Shown: piece by piece, positions 1 through 10,109 of the stretch
Position numbering within the stretch: position 1 is the first letter of the stretch
Layout of the letters: the number at the start of each line of letters is the position of its first letter
Translations under genes and position numbers: made by a program
Notes under the pieces: model-generated
Databases searched by the model: none
What the model saw: only the letters and a program-made list of their open reading frames with translations
Told to the model about the DNA's origin: nothing
Virus record (IMG/VR): IMGVR_UViG_3300037454_000603
Coordinates: 79,646 to 143,645 of that record
Source: a virus
Lineage: Duplodnaviria > Heunggongvirae > Uroviricota > Caudoviricetes
Length of the DNA: 64,000 nt
Strand: one strand, 5' to 3'

Positions 1-838
1 TCTTAATTTTAACCCAAACAAGATTGTTGTTATTAACTTCAGAACCATCTATAACTTCAACTTTAGTCTTATAAGGGAGTGTTCCTTTTAACTCTCCATT
101 TGGAGTTGAACGATAGTTAAGTCCATCTTCATAATTTACATAGAAAGTTGAATAAGTAACTTTCTTTTCTTCTTCTTTGGGCTTAACTTCTTCTTTAGGC
201 TGTGCCGCAGCCTCAAAGTCTTTATAGAAATATGACATATCAATTCCATTTGTAAATCCGTTTACCTTATAAACAGAAGTAAATTGCCAAGCATCGTATG
301 TGTTAATAGAAGGTTTACTCTAAGCAGTACCATCATTTGTTCCATACTTTGCACACCAAATAGAATATTTTTTGATTTTATCAAAATCAATTTTATTATT
401 AAACCAATATTCGCTCATGTAAACACCTGGAACATAGCCAAGTTCTTTAATTCTTTCACAGAAAGCAACTGCAACTTCTGTCCAAGTAGCAGTAGTATTG
501 GCATCTGCACGTCCAGTCTTATTTGGGGCAGTACTTTCTTCTATATCAATATAAATTGGATAAGTAGGTTTAAAATTCTTAATTAAGCCATATGCGTAAT
601 CTGCCTCAGCTATAGCTTCTTCTTTATTCTTGGCCTAAGTAAAGAAATAAAAACCATATGGCTTCTTATTATCTTCCATTCCCTTAACGTGCTTATCAAG
701 CTAAGAGTCTTTACATAACGTGCCCGCGGAGCCATATCCACGATAACCAATTCTTATAATTGCTCCATCAATTTCTTGTGCCGCGGCAGCATAGTTAACA
801 TTGGTTTGAAATTGAGATATATCAATAATCTTCTTCAT
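1..838 (-). CDS. GH25 muramidase endolysin with C-terminal SH3-like region (runs off window edge; TAG=Gln)
   Basis: ATG at 838: MKKIIDISQFQ...IRIGYRGYG...YFFT(TAG)AKN...YIDIE. GH25 catalytic D and DxE are present; in-frame TAGs at 701-703 and 635-637, the latter at the conserved Q of YFFxQA; no TAA/TGA down to position 1. Confidence 0.88.
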
Positions 839-1064
839 TTATTTTTCCTCCTTTCAAATATTTTAAAATTTCGTCAATTTTCTAATCCTATTTAAGAAGA
901 TGCTATTCAATTCGATTTATAACTTCATCCTAAACACGATTAGAATTGTCCATTACTTTTTGTAGGTCACCCTAAGTTACATTCTCTTCATAGTTCATTA
1001 AACCAAAAATAAAAGAAGCAACTGCCAATGAGTTCCAGTAATTTTCATTCTTATTCATACTCAT
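822..1064 (-). CDS. small protein with N-terminal hydrophobic segment and coiled coil, upstream of lysin (possible holin-like; 5 TAG)
   Basis: GGAGG RBS; MSMNKNENYWNSLAVASFIFGLMNY...RIEQHLLKQDQKIDEILKYL when TAG=Q; ends at TGA overlapping the lysin start. Confidence 0.6.
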
Positions 1065-1931: not shown

Positions 1932-2100
1932 TATTTAGCATTAATCCGAAGTTGGATATCTATACTTTACAATTGATTCTATCAAGGAAATCGAATGAAT
2001 TAGTTGAAATTATATGAATATTTGGTAGATTAACATATTCAATAACATTTGTTAGATTGAGTTCATTATAGATTTCGTCGTCAAGAATTTGAATAATCAT
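1918..2100 (-). CDS. hypothetical protein (1 TAG)
   Basis: MIIQILDDEIYNELNL...; GGAG RBS; open to TAA with TAG=Q. Confidence 0.45.
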
Positions 2101-2240
2101 TCATGGGTCTCCTTTCTTTTTTTCTTTGAGTTAATTATAAAATAAAAAAGAAAGAAAATCAAGAATTTGGGCTTTAGAGTTAAATTATTGATTTTTAGAA
2201 TATTATAAGATATTTATAAATACATTTTAAATAAATATTT

Positions 2241-5237
2241 TTAATTTTGCTTTACCCACTGCGATATGCTTTGTATAGTCATATCACTAGGTTGAATTGT
2301 AGTGTTAACCGCTAGCGTATTACTGCCATTGACGGTAGGAATACTGACGCTTGTACCGGTCTTTGTAATCTCGTCAGCGTAACTGCCTATTTTCATCAAC
2401 GGTTCATTGATGACTGCAGTTTCAGGTTCTGCGAGAACGTACCAAACAGTTATAGGAGTACCGTTTGCATACTGCTGTGCAAGGTAGGTTTTGAAATCGG
2501 CAACTGTCGATATACCACTTACACAAAATATGATATAGCGATTAAATGTCCTATTAGATGCACCGCCGCCCTTTCTTGCGTTTGCACCTATCTCGCCTGC
2601 GTATAAATCCGTATATGGTACAATTTGCTATGTAGGTGTTGCCCTCATCTTAAAATGATCACTAATATAGTATGGGTATGGTATATCTCTCATGTCAACG
2701 TCATAGTCAATGATATCGGTCATGCCTAAATCGCTGTACAGGCATGCAAAACAGTACGCACCTGATTCAAGAGTAGATTCGGTAACACTCTACACTGTTT
2801 CCTCTCCCGTTAACACCAGCTTTTTTATACGCCTTGTTGATACCACTGACCCCAGATAGATGTTTGTGGTTGCATTGCTGTATGGCTGATATGGGAGAGG
2901 GGTGGAGCCGCGGTTGAGCATGATTTCAGATAAGGTGATTTGATTTCCGCCACCCGAACCATAACCAAGGTACAGATAGTCGTTAGTGCTTGCAACAGTG
3001 AATGTTACCTTAGTCGTTCCAGGTGATGATAGGTTGTTACCGTTGATACTTACCCCTCCGACATTCGCACTCGCCCTAACGTTACCGCTGGTTGTAGCAT
3101 TGACTTTTATTGAAAACGTAAAAGTCTTGCCAATATCCGATGCTGTGAATGGCGTTGGGTGCGTGGTATAGAAGTTATTTACAGTACCTTGAAAAGTGTC
3201 GTCTATTTGCTTATACGCGCTGTATACAGTGTCAGCATCAAACAAATTCCCAGACTGCACATTCACAGGTATCTTGTATCCATACGGCTCATATGGTAAA
3301 GCGGTGCTGCCTGCGTTGAGCATAGTTTCATAGTCTGCTGGCGTATAATCGCTACCATTAGTGCGTAGTCCTATTACCAGTATGCCATTGGCATCAGCCG
3401 TCCTCGTGATAGAGTGATTCGGATACACTCCGTTAGAAGCCGTTGAAAAAGATTCTCCGATATTACCTATGACAATTAATGCGCCGCCATTATACAACGG
3501 ACAGTTACTTGACATGGTGTATGTTGTATTCGGCTCTAATGTTATTTGTTTAGTGATAAAACTTGTTTCCCCTACGGAATAATCACTTACATTAAACGAG
3601 TTCCCTGTTTTTTCACCACATCCACTTGGATTAACGGGTGAACTCGGTGTTGGTGTCGAAGCTTGCACAGTCTGTCCGCTCATGCTCCAGTCCCTCAGAT
3701 TCTCGCCATCGGACTTGAACGTAAATGGCGGAACACCAGAAATATTAGGCGTATATTCATATAAAGAGCAATTTTCCCAAAGTCCTTTTTTAATACTCAT
3801 TGAACTTGGCTGAATTGTTGTATTCACCATTAAAGTGTTACTTCCCTCTACTGTTGAAATATTGACACTTGAATTAGTGAGATTTATTTCGTCTGCGTAT
3901 GAGCCAATTTTCATTAACGGTTCGTTGACGGCCGCGGTTTCGGGTGTTGCTAAGACATACCAAATGGTTACAGGAGTTCCTGCTGCGTATTGATCAGAGA
4001 AATATTGTTTAATTGCAGCGCCAGTCGTATATCTATTGTCAAAGACAAAAACTGATGAATTATTAGGTGATGATATATGATATATATTACCATCAGCGTT
4101 TTGATATGTGTAATTATAGTGGGTACAATATCCAATTGTATAGTCTGCGGTAGTATACAAAGAGCTAATCTGAAAACGTGATAATCCGCTAACTTTTGAA
4201 TATGTTACCGACTCATTTCCCGTCAGCACCAACTTCTTCACGCGCCTAGTCGATGATGACGTACCAAGATAGATGTTTGTGGTCGTGTTGCTGTAGGGTT
4301 GATATGGGAGAACGGTAGAACCTTCAACAAGCCATACCTGAGCCGTACCGTCAAGATACTATTGCGCATTGGTTCGCTCAGTAAAAATACCTATCTTAAC
4401 CACTCCAGTTGAGTCGGTAGTCACAGTTACGGGGTGGTTTGTAAAGACAGTCGAGGACGTTTGCGAGCTGTTGAAATACACAGAACGATATGCATCCGCT
4501 GGAGTTGCTGTTTCGTTGCCCGTACCGTTACTAATCATCGTGTATGCGGTGTTCGGTTTAAGCTGTAATTCAAGAACATGAGGAAAAGAGTAATTTGTTA
4601 TTGTGCCAGCAGGAGCATTTTTTAGGGCATTGAAGTCTAACAAATTTCCAGACTGTACATTCACAACAGGTATCTTATACCCGAATGGCTCATACTGTAA
4701 AGCGGTGTCGCCTACATTGAGCATAATAGTTGATACTATAGTTGTTTTCTTTAGAATTCGTATATATGCAGCGCCGAGAGTTGCACTATTCACAAACTAA
4801 GTATCAGATTTAAGACCATTCTTATCCCACGCACCGTCATTGTAAGTACCCAGATATGTCTTATTTACATCATATCCCACGAACCAAACAGATGTCGAAC
4901 AGGTATATGTTTGCGTTGTTTCGACTGGTATATAGTCGGATAACCGATAGTCGTCAGCAGAAAACGTTGCTCCTGTAGCCCATGTAATACGCTCATTAGT
5001 CACAGTTGCCGCATTAAACAAATTTCCCGTTCTTTCACCAACACCATTTACATCAACAGGTGAACTCGGCGTTGGTGTACTCGCTTGCACAGTCTATCCT
5101 GCTATATTCCAATCCTATAGAACTCCTCCATCTGACTCAAAGCTAAATGGAGGTGTTCCAGAAAGTTCCTTTAAATCATATTTCTTGGGCTAAACTGTCT
5201 ACCAACTAGTCCCATTAAATTTCTTAAATTCTTTCAT
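2241..5237 (-). CDS. tail fibre/receptor-binding protein, 998 aa, made of two tandem ~500-aa units (TAG=Gln)
   Basis: Track ORFs 4797-5090, 4359-4793 and 2790-4241 share one frame and are separated only by TAG. Duplicated scaffold motifs: QTVQASTPTPSSP, YEPxGYKIP, TNIYLG..STRRxKKLVLTG, WYVLAxPET...EPLMKIGSYADEI. Confidence 0.75.
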
Positions 5238-6259: not shown

Positions 6260-8044
6260 TTAAACTGCCGCAGAACGACAGTAGATTTCATTTCCATTAC
6301 CGACCGTTATCGGGTTGGTTTGTGCAAGCCAATCTTCAATGGTTGCATACCAAGTATATGTACGTGTTTCGTCTTGAGAAGTTGATGGAAGAGCTGTGCC
6401 GTCGGCGTAGGTTGCATATTCAACATAGTTATACGACGATGGACTAGGATAATTAGACGCTTTTGTGTATGTGATATAAGTGCCAAGCGGGATGTAAATT
6501 ATGCAGTCTGTAGGGATGCTTGTCCACGCACTGAAGCTTGACACCGTTGGCGGGGTTTCGCCTATAAATCTTATGTAGCCTAGGCCATAGCAGTTCTGGA
6601 ATGCATAATGACCTATGCTTGTAACCTTGCTCGGTATGGTTACAGAGGCTAATGCGGAGCTGTTGGAGAATGCATAATTATCTATGCTTGTGACACTGCT
6701 TGGTATAGTTATAGAGTTTAGCGCAGAGCAGTCCTGGAATGCATTGCCCTCTATCTTTGTAACGGTGCTCGGTATGATTATGGACGTTAGCGCACGGCAT
6801 CCAGAGAATGCAGTACTACCTATGCTTGTAACGTTGCTAGGTATAGTTACAGAGGACAGTGCATAACAGTTCTGGAACGCATAAGCACCAATATCTGTGA
6901 CACTGCTCGGTATGGTTATAGCGTTTAGCGAAAAGCAATTCTGGAACGTGTATGTGCCTATGCTTGTGACCTTGCTAGGTATAGTTATGGAGGTTAGTGC
7001 ATAGCAGCTAGTGAATGTACTCGCACCTATGCTTGTGACTTGGCTAGGTATGGTTACAGAGGCTAGTACATAGCAGCCGCCGAATGCACTAGCGCCTATA
7101 CTGGTGATGCTGCTTGGTATAGTTACAGAGGCTAGTGCAAAGCAATTCTGGAATGTATTAGTATTTAGGCTGGTAACATTATTCGGTATGGTTATGAATT
7201 TTAACGCAGTGCAGCCATAGAATGCATAACTACCTATGCTTGTGACGCTGCTAGGTATGATTACGGACGTTAGCGAATAACAGCTCTGGAATACCTTATT
7301 ATCTATGCTTGTGACATTGCTGCCAATACGCACCTCATGAACTGTTCTCATATAGACAGCGTTTTGGTCGGTGGTTGTTCTGTTTGCTGTTAACAATAGA
7401 GGTCCTTTAGCGCCATTGTGCAAAAAACTCATACTGCCTGTAACCTCTAGTGCAATAACATAATCGCCAGCAGTAGCATACTTGTGAGATTTGAGTACTG
7501 CTGCAGATACCTTAGACCCAGTCATAGTATCATGCTCTGAACCATCACCCCAGTCAACATCGACTGAACCGTTAATACCTAATCCAAGATACGGTTCAAG
7601 CCTACCATCACTAAGAGTGATATAAATCCTAGTCTTGCCGTCTGAGGTATTATACATCTGTCCAATATTAAGTTTACCATAATTAGCCACATAAGCCTTA
7701 GCGTCTGCTAAAGACCAGTTCCAGCCTTGAGCAGTTAAACCTTCGTGGGAAGGATTAGCAGGCATTGCAGATAAGTCGGCAAACTCTGAAGCAGAATAGT
7801 TATAAAGAATTGTGCCGTCATAGTCATAAAAAATAACGTCCATTGCTGAACCAGAAGATGAGCCTGAGACATCTACAGTAATAGTAGAATAGCCATCTGC
7901 GTTTTCTTCTTTAGCAGAATAAGTTCCATTTTCTGTAATTGTTTTATTTATCAACTCTGGGCCGCCACTTTTATCAGAGTAAGTTTTTGAAAAATAAGAC
8001 GGCTCTAGAGTACTATCGAATCCTTGATTTATTAAAGGAAACAT
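6260..8044 (-). CDS. BspA/TpLRR-type leucine-rich-repeat protein, 594 aa
   Basis: 11 tandem 23-aa repeats, consensus LxSxTIPSxVTSIGxxAFxxCxA; N-terminus shared with the two upstream genes; no TAG. Confidence 0.9.
   Translation of the reverse strand: MFPLINQGFDSTLEPSYFSKTYSDKSGGPELINKTITENGTYSAKEENADGYSTITVDVSGSSSGSAMDVIFYDYDGTILYNYSASEFADLSAMPANPSHEGLTAQGWNWSLADAKAYVANYGKLNIGQMYNTSDGKTRIYITLSDGRLEPYLGLGINGSVDVDWGDGSEHDTMTGSKVSAAVLKSHKYATAGDYVIALEVTGSMSFLHNGAKGPLLLTANRTTTDQNAVYMRTVHEVRIGSNVTSIDNKVFQSCYSLTSVIIPSSVTSIGSYAFYGCTALKFITIPNNVTSLNTNTFQNCFALASVTIPSSITSIGASAFGGCYVLASVTIPSQVTSIGASTFTSCYALTSITIPSKVTSIGTYTFQNCFSLNAITIPSSVTDIGAYAFQNCYALSSVTIPSNVTSIGSTAFSGCRALTSIIIPSTVTKIEGNAFQDCSALNSITIPSSVTSIDNYAFSNSSALASVTIPSKVTSIGHYAFQNCYGLGYIRFIGETPPTVSSFSAWTSIPTDCIIYIPLGTYITYTKASNYPSPSSYNYVEYATYADGTALPSTSQDETRTYTWYATIEDWLAQTNPITVGNGNEIYCRSAAV
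6580..7335 (-). repeat. 69-bp coding tandem repeat (LRR units, about 11 copies)
   Basis: periodic acctatgcttgt(g/a)ac...ggtat(a/g)gtta(c/t) on the + strand. Confidence 0.85.
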
Positions 8045-8112
8045 TTTAATTCCTCCTTTATGAATTGTTAAATATAAATTCTAAGGTTTACTGTTTTTGA
8101 TTAATTATGAAA

Positions 8113-8631
8113 CTAATTTATGCAGTATAAAATTATATCAACGCCTTGATCTTGAGCGATTATAAATGTTAAAAACATAGACGGCATATCGCGACCAACA
8201 ATATCAAAACAGTTTGTTTGTAAAACAATTGCATCAGTCAATACTACGTCCGTTCCTGGACCAAGATATCTTATGTCGTCTTTAAATGAATAAACTATAT
8301 TTAAAGGCTGCTCGTAACCATAAAGGTTAACTTCACCGATAATGCTTTTACCAGAATTAAAAGCAGAGGCTATTTCCGCATACGTATGATTAATAGTTGG
8401 GTCACTAGGTTCTGGAACATTAATCACAACTTCATACGTTTCAGGCACTGGTGTCGCTACATTAACTGTAACACTAGAATATCCATCAGCGTTATCGTCC
8501 ACTGCATTATATGTATCATTTTCAGTTATAGTTTTACTAATAAGAGTAGGCTCAGAAATAGTCTGCTTTGTTTCTGTTAAATAAGCAGGTTCAATTGTAC
8601 TGTCCTTGCCTTGATTTATAAAAAGTTCCAT
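8113..8631 (-). CDS. virion-accessory protein with shared N-terminal tag
   Basis: MELFINQGKDSTIEPAYL...LISKTITENDTYNAVDDNADGYSSVTVNV, similar to the N-terminus of the LRR gene. Confidence 0.75.
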   Translation of the reverse strand: MELFINQGKDSTIEPAYLTETKQTISEPTLISKTITENDTYNAVDDNADGYSSVTVNVATPVPETYEVVINVPEPSDPTINHTYAEIASAFNSGKSIIGEVNLYGYEQPLNIVYSFKDDIRYLGPGTDVVLTDAIVLQTNCFDIVGRDMPSMFLTFIIAQDQGVDIILYCIN

Positions 8632-8725: not shown

Positions 8726-9157
8726 TTATTTTTGATTATTATAAAGTGAAACAAAAAACTCATCAGTAAATGACTCGGGATTATTCCATATCACAAGTAA
8801 ATATACATCAACTACTGTTTCCGATACTTCAGCGGTAATTTTACATTCTACAGCTATATTACCACTGTTGTTGATAAAACCATTTCCAGCAATAACAGAA
8901 GATATTACCATTCCTTCTGGATAAGTAAAATCAAATACGGGAACTAAATTTTTACCGCTATTAAGAGCCGCCATTAATTCAGCGTAGGTTTTTGTTGCAC
9001 TTGTGACCTCGGGCCTTCCCATTTCAGGGAGGTTTATTGTAAATCCAACCTCGAACGTCTCACTAGGCGCAGGGGTTGTACCATTCTTAGAGCCCATTTC
9101 TGCCAAATACCCAGGTTCAACAGTACTATCTTTACCCTAATTTATAAAAAGTTCCAT
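8726..9157 (-). CDS. virion-accessory protein with shared N-terminal tag (143 aa; TAG at codon 7)
   Basis: ATG 9157: MELFIN(TAG)GKDSTVEPGYL, aligning with MELFIN(CAA)GKDSTIEPAYL of the neighbouring gene. Confidence 0.75.
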
Positions 9158-9163
9158 CTTCTC

Positions 9164-9850
9164 TCACCCCAAATTTTTCTTTCCTTTAACTTGTGCCGCG
9201 GTAGCAGCCAAATCCGCAACATTTACCTTTCCGTCTCCATTAACATCTGCTGCTTTCTATTGTTCTTCAGACAAAGGCTTCTTGCCCTTAACGTGTGCGG
9301 CAATCATTGAAACGTCTGTTACATCAACTTTTCCGTCTCCATTAACGTCGCCCTTAACAACACTTTCAGGCTCTTTATTATCTTCTTCGCCAAGAACCTT
9401 TGTTTGGTCTTTAGCTCTTAAAACTCCGAGAACAGGATTACAACCATCGTTAGCCGCGCTACTATTAAAATAATGTTTAACAAGTTGAGTTTTTTCTCTT
9501 TTTCCAAGAGTATTCTATTCCAAAGAAACAAACCAATCAATATTACCTTCACCATTTCCGATAGCAACGTGACCCCAAGTGCCGCCGCCCCAAATTACAA
9601 CGTCTCCTTTTTGAACAACGAGTTCTCTTGTATTTGGAATTCTATCAAAATTTTCAACTAATGCGGGATAGCTATAGAAATTGTTGTAAAGGTCTCTTGC
9701 ACCAGTGCACCAAACGCCAGTAATATCAAACAAATCTTTCCAATACTGGTCAGCAACGTCAACGCACTGATATCCTGCTACACCGTCATAATCAATTCCT
9801 ACGCCCAAATAAGCCTTTTCAAATTCATCGTAGCTATGATATTTACTCAT
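9164..9850 (-). CDS. CHAP-domain peptidoglycan hydrolase with C-terminal dockerin (228 aa; 2 TAG)
   Basis: CHAP motifs YQCVD, WGHVAI and LE(TAG)N = EQN; then GDVNGDGKVDVTDVSMIAAHVKGKK...AADVNGDGKVNVADL, a duplicated Ca-binding dockerin repeat; TGA at 9164. Confidence 0.85.
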
Positions 9851-10109
9851 TCGTCATAACCTCCTTTCCTATTTCATTAAAATATCGTTTTACTTCCTTG
9901 ACATCTTCTTCTTTTTCAATTAAAATTTTAACAAAAGAATTGATTTTAAAAGCTCCAGAAAGAAGGCCTATCATTGACTTTCCATTAATCATTCTCTCGT
10001 CTTCTGTTATTAAATATAAAGAAGAAGAAACTTTATTTAAATTCCAGTTTAATAGTGCCGCGGCACGACCCCATAGATTGGTATTTAACTTGTACTTAAG
10101 AGTATACAT
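9843..10109 (-). CDS. HPr-family (PTS phosphocarrier-like) protein lacking His15
   Basis: 88 aa; NLWGRAAALL corresponds to GLHARPAxxx, and INGKSMIGLLS to the Ser46 motif. Confidence 0.7.
   Translation of the reverse strand: MYTLKYKLNTNLWGRAAALLNWNLNKVSSSLYLITEDERMINGKSMIGLLSGAFKINSFVKILIEKEEDVKEVKRYFNEIGKEVMTNE

Follow-up and report, generated by a model that had tools for sequence, protein, structure and literature searches.

A phage CHAP lysin with a Ruminococcus albus-type dockerin, encoded with TAG read as glutamine

INTRODUCTION

What can a phage lysin hold on to when it reaches the wall of its host? To our knowledge, the C-terminal modules of known lysins (SH3b, LysM, PG_binding, choline-binding) recognise wall polymers, and the gene described here raises the question of whether a protein can serve as the anchor instead. 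The gene lies on the minus strand at positions 9164..9850 of a 64,000-nucleotide stretch of viral DNA (hereafter the window; positions 79,646 to 143,645 of the IMG/VR virus record IMGVR_UViG_3300037454_000603, Caudoviricetes). The record comprises 178,943 bp, is rated complete by CheckV and has a GC content of 32.5%. With TAG read as glutamine, the gene consists of 228 codons and a TGA stop (9164-9166) and encodes a CHAP domain, a linker and a dockerin. An initial annotation of the window had described it as a CHAP peptidoglycan hydrolase whose cellulosomal dockerin replaces the usual wall-binding domain and would hijack the cellulosome assembly code of the host.

Our comparisons of sequences and predicted structures show a modular endolysin in which a protein-docking module replaces the wall-binding module; bacterial lysozymes with dockerins are already known. 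We lean, somewhat beyond an even chance, towards a cytoplasmic CHAP endolysin of an approximately 179-kb cattle-gut or rumen phage that reads TAG as glutamine, which the dockerin would tether to the envelope of an R. albus-like host and which would aid a second lysin with GH25 and SH3 domains. No description of a dockerin-bearing phage endolysin was found in our literature and full-text searches, whose coverage stops short of subscription journals. For viruses, one paper (PMC13452462) mentions dockerins in connection with putative archaeal viruses.

RESULTS

Decoding of TAG in the lysin gene

Under translation table 11, the open reading frame (ORF) covers only 9515..9850 of the minus strand and ends after 111 codons at the TAG at 9515-9517. 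When TAG is translated as glutamine, the frame spans 9164..9850 and yields 228 residues, with in-frame TAGs at codon 112 (9515..9517) and codon 198 (9257..9259). The first supplies the Q of an E-Q-N motif, between the catalytic residues E111 and N113, and the second falls in the helix that joins the two dockerin repeats. The dockerin sequence given in the initial annotation is exactly what this translation produces. Its prediction that a code-11 annotation would lose the dockerin also agrees with the existing gene calls, which give 111 amino acids on the 178,943-bp IMG record and 228 amino acids in two other pipelines.

The use of TAG as a glutamine codon, which the initial annotation had assumed, is borne out across the genome. 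ARAGORN identifies 26 tRNA genes, two of them with the anticodon CUA. In a set of 204 non-overlapping phage ORFs of at least 80 codons each, we counted 553 in-frame TAGs, making up 31% of the glutamine codons, and the stop codons of these ORFs comprise 145 TAA, 59 TGA and no TAG. A comparison of the suppressor tRNAs with the tRNA-Gln genes of the phage gave no clear derivation, and says nothing on the amino acid that they carry. Within the lysin itself, all homologues have Q (sometimes E) where TAG112 stands, solved CHAP lysins have their (E/D)-Q-N motif there, and TAG198 aligns with Q or R in relatives. The lysin gene of two related contigs (L008 and L009; 86% identical) has TAGs at codons 112, 149 and 212, the latter two of which are sense glutamine codons in the window.

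Two other cattle-gut runs yielded contigs that match the lysin gene at about 95-96% identity and enabled a comparison between strains. Third codon positions account for 24 of the 27 listed differences (P = 3e-9), and 26 of the 27 are synonymous if TAG is glutamine. Thirteen synonymous changes follow TAG112 and three follow TAG198, so the entire 228-codon frame is under purifying selection, including the parts beyond both TAGs. One of the differences, 9517 A>G, turns TAG112 into CAG in strains of the two other runs. That both TAGs are translated through is thus well supported by sequence comparison. In addition, an RNA library from cattle gut contains contigs identical to 9365-9560, 8939-9260 and 9781-10015, with both TAGs unchanged. 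They hint weakly at transcription of the lysin gene without editing, as carry-over of DNA is possible and the strand is not readable, and gene stretches without RNA cover carry no meaning.

If TAG were a true stop, the product would be a 111-residue CHAP fragment and the dockerin frame a decaying remnant, as the standard-code call of 111 amino acids in IMG would have it. Termination at codon 112 would cost the catalytic N113 and, according to the AF2 structure model, the last two core strands of the domain (residues 122-127 and 140-146). The pair of tRNA-CUA genes, the lack of TAG stops, the synonymous changes after both TAGs and the alternation of TAG112 with CAG likewise speak against it. 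This explanation is already contradicted by the sequence data, and we give it almost no credence.

The CHAP domain

The CHAP peptidoglycan hydrolase domain occupies residues 1-147 (9410..9850, minus strand). The Pfam CHAP model scores it at 25.4 bits, just under the gathering score of 26, and profile matches to two PHROG endolysin families are far stronger (1.8e-21 and 1.9e-19) and extend beyond codon 112. A search of the whole phage genome with the Pfam CHAP model gave no match, the weak score falling to its initial filter, and is uninformative. A PHROG family labelled as tail-associated cell-wall hydrolase matches at 7.6e-12. Sequence matches in the PDB include staphylococcal LytN and lysin CHAP domains (5e-11) and PlyGRCS (3e-10), together with dockerins (1e-9 to 1e-5). 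The catalytic residues C29, H94, E111 and N113 are invariant in 44 homologues. Equally invariant in 44 sequences are D20, D22 and D31, which form a D20-x-D22...D31 calcium loop resembling that of LysGH15 and PlyGRCS (cf. PMC4022735).

We modelled the whole lysin with AF2 using 44 homologues and obtained a mean pLDDT of 87.7, with an alpha+beta CHAP domain (residues 1-146), an ill-ordered linker and a three-helix dockerin. Foldseek matches the CHAP part to the endolysins PlyGRCS, LysIME-EF1, LysK CHAPk and LysGH15. Like LysK/CHAPk (4CSH), LysGH15 (4OLK) and PlyGRCS (8H1I), the protein combines a CHAP fold, a Cys-His-Glu-Asn site and a calcium loop before the Cys, and it shares with them a two-module plan, a length of about 230-250 amino acids and the lack of a signal peptide. 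It differs in that those lysins end in an SH3b tail where this one ends in a dockerin, and in that the phage gene is readable only with TAG as glutamine. The N-terminal 147 residues are, by sequence and fold, a CHAP hydrolase of the LysK/PlyGRCS type with an intact Cys-His-Glu-Asn site. Judging from what is known of the family, the domain would cut peptidoglycan stem peptides or cross-bridges.

The dockerin and its type

An acidic linker (residues 148-165; 9356..9409, minus strand), with pLDDT below 50 at residues 158-163 and a length that differs among relatives in the alignment, leads into a type I dockerin at residues 166-228 (9167..9355, minus strand). Pfam PF00404 (Dockerin_1) matches residues 166-215 with 57.9 bits and an E-value of 1.2e-15, compared with a gathering score of 22.9, so the HMM search that the initial annotation had proposed ends far over the threshold; in a six-frame search of the genome the same model scores 59.8 bits. 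Dockerin repeats are about 22 residues long, have D or N at positions 1, 3, 5, 9 and 12, and lie about 34 residues apart. Here repeat 1 runs from D168 to G189 with the calcium residues D168, N170, D172, D176 and D179, and repeat 2 from D202 to G223 with D202, N204, D206, N210 and D213. The helices of the model (residues 177-187, 195-201 and 211-221) superpose on solved dockerins at root-mean-square deviations of 0.6-1.5 A in Foldseek, with 1OHZ_B the closest (0.6 A, TM 0.95), followed among others by 2CCL, 4FL4 and 5LXV. Sequence families, PDB entries and fold thus agree with the claim of a CHAP domain and a complete two-repeat dockerin in a single frame.

The initial annotation had likened a signature in this module to R. 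albus dockerins, and both residues and relatives confirm it. According to Dassa et al. 2014 (PMC4081043), strains of R. albus encode 58-90 dockerin proteins of one conserved type, in which positions 10, 11, 17 and 18, predicted to govern recognition, are V(I), T, A and A. The lysin has V177, T178, A184 and A185 at these positions in repeat 1 and V211, A212, A218 and A219 in repeat 2, and its dockerin helices end in AAHVKGKK and AAQVKGKK. When the tail alone was compared with longer proteins, the closest named relatives were R. albus dockerin proteins at 60-68% identity, with unnamed relatives reaching up to 75%. Among 401 genomes sampled from the family, the best by a clear margin is an R. albus genome, in which at least 14 dockerins reach 54-63% identity, which answers the proposed comparison with Ruminococcus proteomes; the cohesin-dockerin protein of that genome is WP_074831280.1 of Ruminococcus albus. 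In other Ruminococcus genomes the dockerins are 35-55% identical to that of the lysin, and a genus-level scan around one Ruminococcus metagenome-assembled genome (MAG) found distant dockerins only (at most 47% identity).

The C-terminal 63 residues are therefore, by sequence and fold, a complete two-repeat dockerin of the R. albus type. They resemble the dockerins of R. albus proteins in the V/I-T-A-A residues, the AAH(V/I)KGKK helix ends and an identity of 54-75% (PMC4081043). The difference lies in the carrier, which is a secreted glycoside hydrolase, a leucine-rich repeat (LRR) protein or a protein of unassigned function in R. albus and a phage lysin here. The GC content of the dockerin segment is 44%, as against 38% in the CHAP part and 32.5% in the genome, and this excess would fit capture from a host-like genome. 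Positions 9196-9201, inside the second dockerin repeat (codons T217-A219), form a CCGCGG palindrome core in a genome that is AT-rich.

A dockerin in the position of a wall-binding module

We found 596 relatives of similar length among 5.8 billion proteins. The twelve closest (65-86% identity) all consist of CHAP and dockerin, and they maintain the V/T/A/A pattern at the recognition positions. The remaining approximately 580 have CHAP domains that are 50-75% identical and tails of similar length that belong to PG_binding_1, SH3_3 or CW_7, and the junction ...VLGVLRAKDQ.KVLG is common to the lysin and to relatives with other tails. Since CHAP homologues carry wall-binding modules at this place, the dockerin stands in the position of such a module, much as the initial annotation had suggested. 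In terms of sequence, modules have been shuffled as is ordinary for endolysins, and it is the module that is unusual.

In all four readable contigs with a CHAP-dockerin lysin of this family (the window, L008, L009 and L010), TAG is a sense codon. The claim that the fusion is visible only with TAG as glutamine holds for the gene in the window; it does not extend to the CHAP-dockerin lysin of L010 (65% identical), which has no in-frame TAG. L010 was considered as a standard-code phage with the same fusion and rejected, given the in-frame TAGs in the neighbouring genes. A search of 50,697 deposited phage genomes gave no dockerin of the R. albus type, and CHAP-dockerin lysins seem to be restricted to recoded phages of gut and rumen that are uncultured. 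A further contig with phage context (L060) carries at 2076-3548 a 490-residue lysin (P0186) that combines GH25, a CHAP domain of the same family, an R. albus-type dockerin and LysM, and this gene is placed after a tail-collar fibre gene and a 57-residue gene.

Peptidoglycan hydrolases with dockerins have been described in bacteria. The cellulosome of R. champanellensis includes a dockerin-bearing GH25 lysozyme (Morais et al. 2016, Environ Microbiol 18:5112, as cited in PMC6403190 and PMC13463774), and a bovine rumen metagenome contains dockerin-linked putative lysozymes and D-Ala-D-Ala peptidases (Bensoussan et al., PMC6487960). The phage protein shares with these the union of a peptidoglycan hydrolase with a ruminococcal dockerin, and for both the tether would be a cell-surface cohesin. 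The bacterial enzymes are secreted and belong to GH25, whereas the present one is encoded by a recoded phage, uses CHAP, lacks a signal peptide and has endolysin relatives.

The conserved pattern also bears on whether the dockerin needs a cohesin at all. It could instead act as a switch for folding or solubility that responds to calcium, being unfolded in the cytoplasm, where calcium is low, and folded outside, or as a low-affinity module for wall binding or self-association. Dockerins require calcium for folding. From family knowledge, both the CHAP domain and the dockerin would be calcium-dependent, and the CHAP domain has a calcium loop of the LysGH15/PlyGRCS type (PMC4022735); recognisable cohesins are also few in R. 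albus (PMC4081043). Retention of V/T/A/A across the twelve phage lysins would not be expected were calcium binding all that mattered, and the strain differences within the dockerin are synonymous. We consider a dockerin without a cohesin partner improbable.

Host and candidate receptors

The likely source run is labelled as a bovine gut metagenome, and the phage itself was confirmed in no independent run. The nearest genomic relatives of the CHAP domain lie in sheep-rumen Ruminococcus MAGs. From these similarities and those of the dockerin, the most likely host is an R. albus-like Ruminococcus. The CHAP domain was not found in the flavefaciens-like genome searched; taken together with its absence from the R. 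albus genome searched, this leaves no prophage link to those two genomes.

The cellulosomal part of the original claim fits poorly. Published work describes R. albus as deficient in cohesins, with a lone ScaF-like cohesin-dockerin adaptor and no genuine cellulosome (PMC4081043). A search for a multi-cohesin scaffoldin in the R. albus genome gave single-cohesin proteins only, which is less than a cellulosome component would call for. The label of an R. albus-type dockerin is fitting; a cellulosomal nature is not demonstrable.

In the one R. albus genome searched, four proteins have a cohesin above the Pfam threshold and a fifth is just below it (loci L048, L050, L052, L054 and L056), which exceeds the single cohesin reported in 2014. 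One of them is the ScaF-like adaptor WP_074831280.1, which in 408 amino acids combines a cohesin with an AAHIKGKK dockerin of its own. The others above the threshold measure 385 amino acids, 753 amino acids (with additional LRRs) and 472 amino acids (with a signal peptide and a C-terminal membrane anchor), and the fifth protein also ends in a membrane anchor. The two that are neither the adaptor nor membrane-anchored have a repeat module at the C-terminus. We prefer the membrane-anchored cohesins as candidate receptors, an unproven choice, as a lysin crossing the membrane would meet them. A complex prediction for the lysin dockerin with the cohesin region of L054 (residues 110-275) scored 0.00, which carries no weight either way.

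The partner could also be encoded by the phage, for example by neighbouring small proteins that share an N-terminal peptide, giving plug-in assembly on the virion or in the cell. Directly downstream of the lysin, at 8726-9157, 8101-8631 and 6260-8044 of the minus strand, lie three genes with a conserved N-terminal peptide (M.L.INQG.DST.EP.Y) and varied C-terminal domains, and divergent cohesins can evade sequence models (PMC13463774). The Pfam cohesin model finds no match in the 179-kb phage genome even at E <= 1, the C-terminal domains of the small neighbours, at about 105-120 residues, are shorter than the 139-position cohesin model, and the dockerin is closest to host dockerins. A phage-encoded partner is in our view highly improbable.

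Genomic setting and the second lysin

The lysin is the second gene of a long minus-strand operon, preceded by an HPr-like gene and followed, further on, by fibre-like genes. The HPr-like gene (9843..10109, minus strand; 88 amino acids, Pfam PTS-HPr 1.4e-4) extends 8 nucleotides into the lysin gene, and its order before the CHAP-dockerin lysin is kept in L008, L009 and the P0010 contig. A Shine-Dalgarno sequence, AAGGAGG, at 9860..9866 on the minus strand lies 9 nucleotides before the ATG (9848-9850), within the 3' end of the upstream gene. Scanning around the lysin gene for promoters and terminators gave consensus-level matches only, and the operon boundary is not clear.

The three genes with the shared N-terminal peptide follow. 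The two small ones have an internal helix motif in common, and the C-terminal domains of the genes differ. The third is TAG-free and encodes a 594-residue LRR protein of the BspA type, for which the best of five Ruminococcus genomes is R. albus (48% identity). Thereafter come a 1008-residue fibre-like protein, a small 80-residue protein and the conventional lysin. The small protein (822-1064, minus strand) begins with a short hydrophobic stretch and continues as a long tail of polar, charged residues; it has no family match and may be a lysis accessory protein. The conventional lysin, with GH25 and SH3_3 repeats, has 453 amino acids and three TAGs; its 5' part occupies 1..838 of the window (minus strand), the gene leaving the window at the left end (genome C1:79122-80483). 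A holin-like membrane protein of 108 amino acids (phrog_1299, 4e-5) is encoded 1.4 kb downstream of it, at genome C1:77426-77752.

Relatives of this operon link the two types of lysin. In L010, a homologue of the 80-residue protein (1856-2074) stands directly before the CHAP-dockerin lysin and after a Peptidase_G2 tail fibre. In both L010 and L060, a lysin with an R. albus-type dockerin follows a tail fibre and a small protein, in the slot that the GH25 lysin holds in the window. Because the homologue of the 80-residue protein can precede either type, the two share one slot across different phages, which supports an endolysin role.

In the window, the gene stands at the head of the operon of fibre genes and at a distance from both the holin-like gene and the GH25-SH3 lysin, a setting that admits another function. 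The enzyme could act from outside, on the virion or after release at lysis, by docking on cohesins of neighbouring Ruminococcus cells, which are exposed at the surface and reachable from there. It would then thin the wall for an incoming phage or kill bystanders, as a phage 'lyticome', a term from an idea proposed in a review (PMC6403190). For bacterial lysozymes with dockerins, a role as weapons against competitors has been proposed (PMC6487960; PMC6403190), and the PHROG family of tail-associated hydrolases is among the matches of the CHAP domain. Set against this, a lysin of only 228 amino acids has no virion-anchoring domain, nor does the phage encode a Pfam cohesin that might keep it on the virion. 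Endolysins head the PHROG, PDB and fold matches, the homologues pair a catalytic with a binding domain as classic endolysins do, and it is the dockerin lysin that fills the endolysin slot of L010 and L060. We regard action from outside as unlikely.

DISCUSSION

The protein is probably aimed by protein-to-protein docking, judging from the position of the dockerin among the tails of its relatives. Its synthesis would begin only after both tRNA-CUA suppressors of the phage act. Recoding in gut phages extends to genes for structure and for lysis, and in-frame TAGs keep the lysis genes from being translated ahead of the code switch (bioRxiv 10.1101/2021.08.26.457843; Peters et al., PMC9523058), and the TAG codons of the lysin may tie its synthesis to a late switch as proposed generally for such phages (bioRxiv 10.1101/2021.08.26.457843). 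Early translation would give no active enzyme, because N113 and two core strands lie beyond a stop at codon 112. Once the membrane has been breached, extracellular calcium would let the dockerin fold and bind a putative receptor of the cohesin type, the same one that would tether the 60-90 dockerin proteins of R. albus to its envelope. The ScaF-like adaptor and the two cohesin proteins with C-terminal membrane anchors are candidates for this receptor. Docking would keep the CHAP domain on the host wall and later on debris, performing the wall-binding job through protein-protein contact, and the enzyme would act alongside the conventional GH25-SH3 lysin. The specific step in which the lysin uses the host dockerin code to clamp onto a membrane- or wall-anchored cohesin-type receptor is a tentative one, and we hold it to be doubtful. 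We put cohesin hijack forward as a testable hypothesis; 'cellulosome hijack' overstates the case.

Several observations weigh against a dockerin-tethered endolysin in R. albus. Known surface cohesins lie outside the wall, and an endolysin comes from inside. The gene is 8-10 kb away from the GH25-SH3_3 lysin and the holin-like gene, both downstream of it, and stands in one operon with fibre-like genes, a position that makes a role other than lysis from within possible. The host assignment draws solely on similarity of the dockerin and the lysin, and no homologue of the CHAP domain was found in the R. albus genome searched. As R. albus is reported to be cohesin-deficient (PMC4081043), the proposed receptor is hypothetical. 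With respect to timing, the phage shares code 15 and phage suppressor tRNAs with recoded gut phages, but the lysin gene shows no sign of special recoding. Two TAGs in 228 codons come close to the average density of the genome, and codon 112 reads CAG in close strains, so this codon is not a conserved regulatory site and the gene is not specially gated.

The gene illustrates what standard-code annotation can lose, as the public IMG entry is a 111-residue fragment without the catalytic Asn or the dockerin. If the tethered endolysin is real, it would be the first endolysin targeted by protein-protein interaction rather than by wall carbohydrates. A dockerin in the wall-binding position implies targeting of a host surface protein, which bears on host range, on resistance (through one protein lost or changed) and on lysin engineering. 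A released lysin may also compete with host dockerin enzymes for the receptor on neighbouring cells.

R. albus is a principal fibre degrader of the rumen, and the reliance of a phage on its dockerin type argues for a receptor in its envelope. If so, the receptor of the 60-90 'orphan' dockerins of R. albus would be an envelope protein, which addresses the puzzle of a species poor in cohesins and rich in dockerins, and the 228-residue lysin or its 63-residue dockerin would be a ready probe to fish that receptor out.

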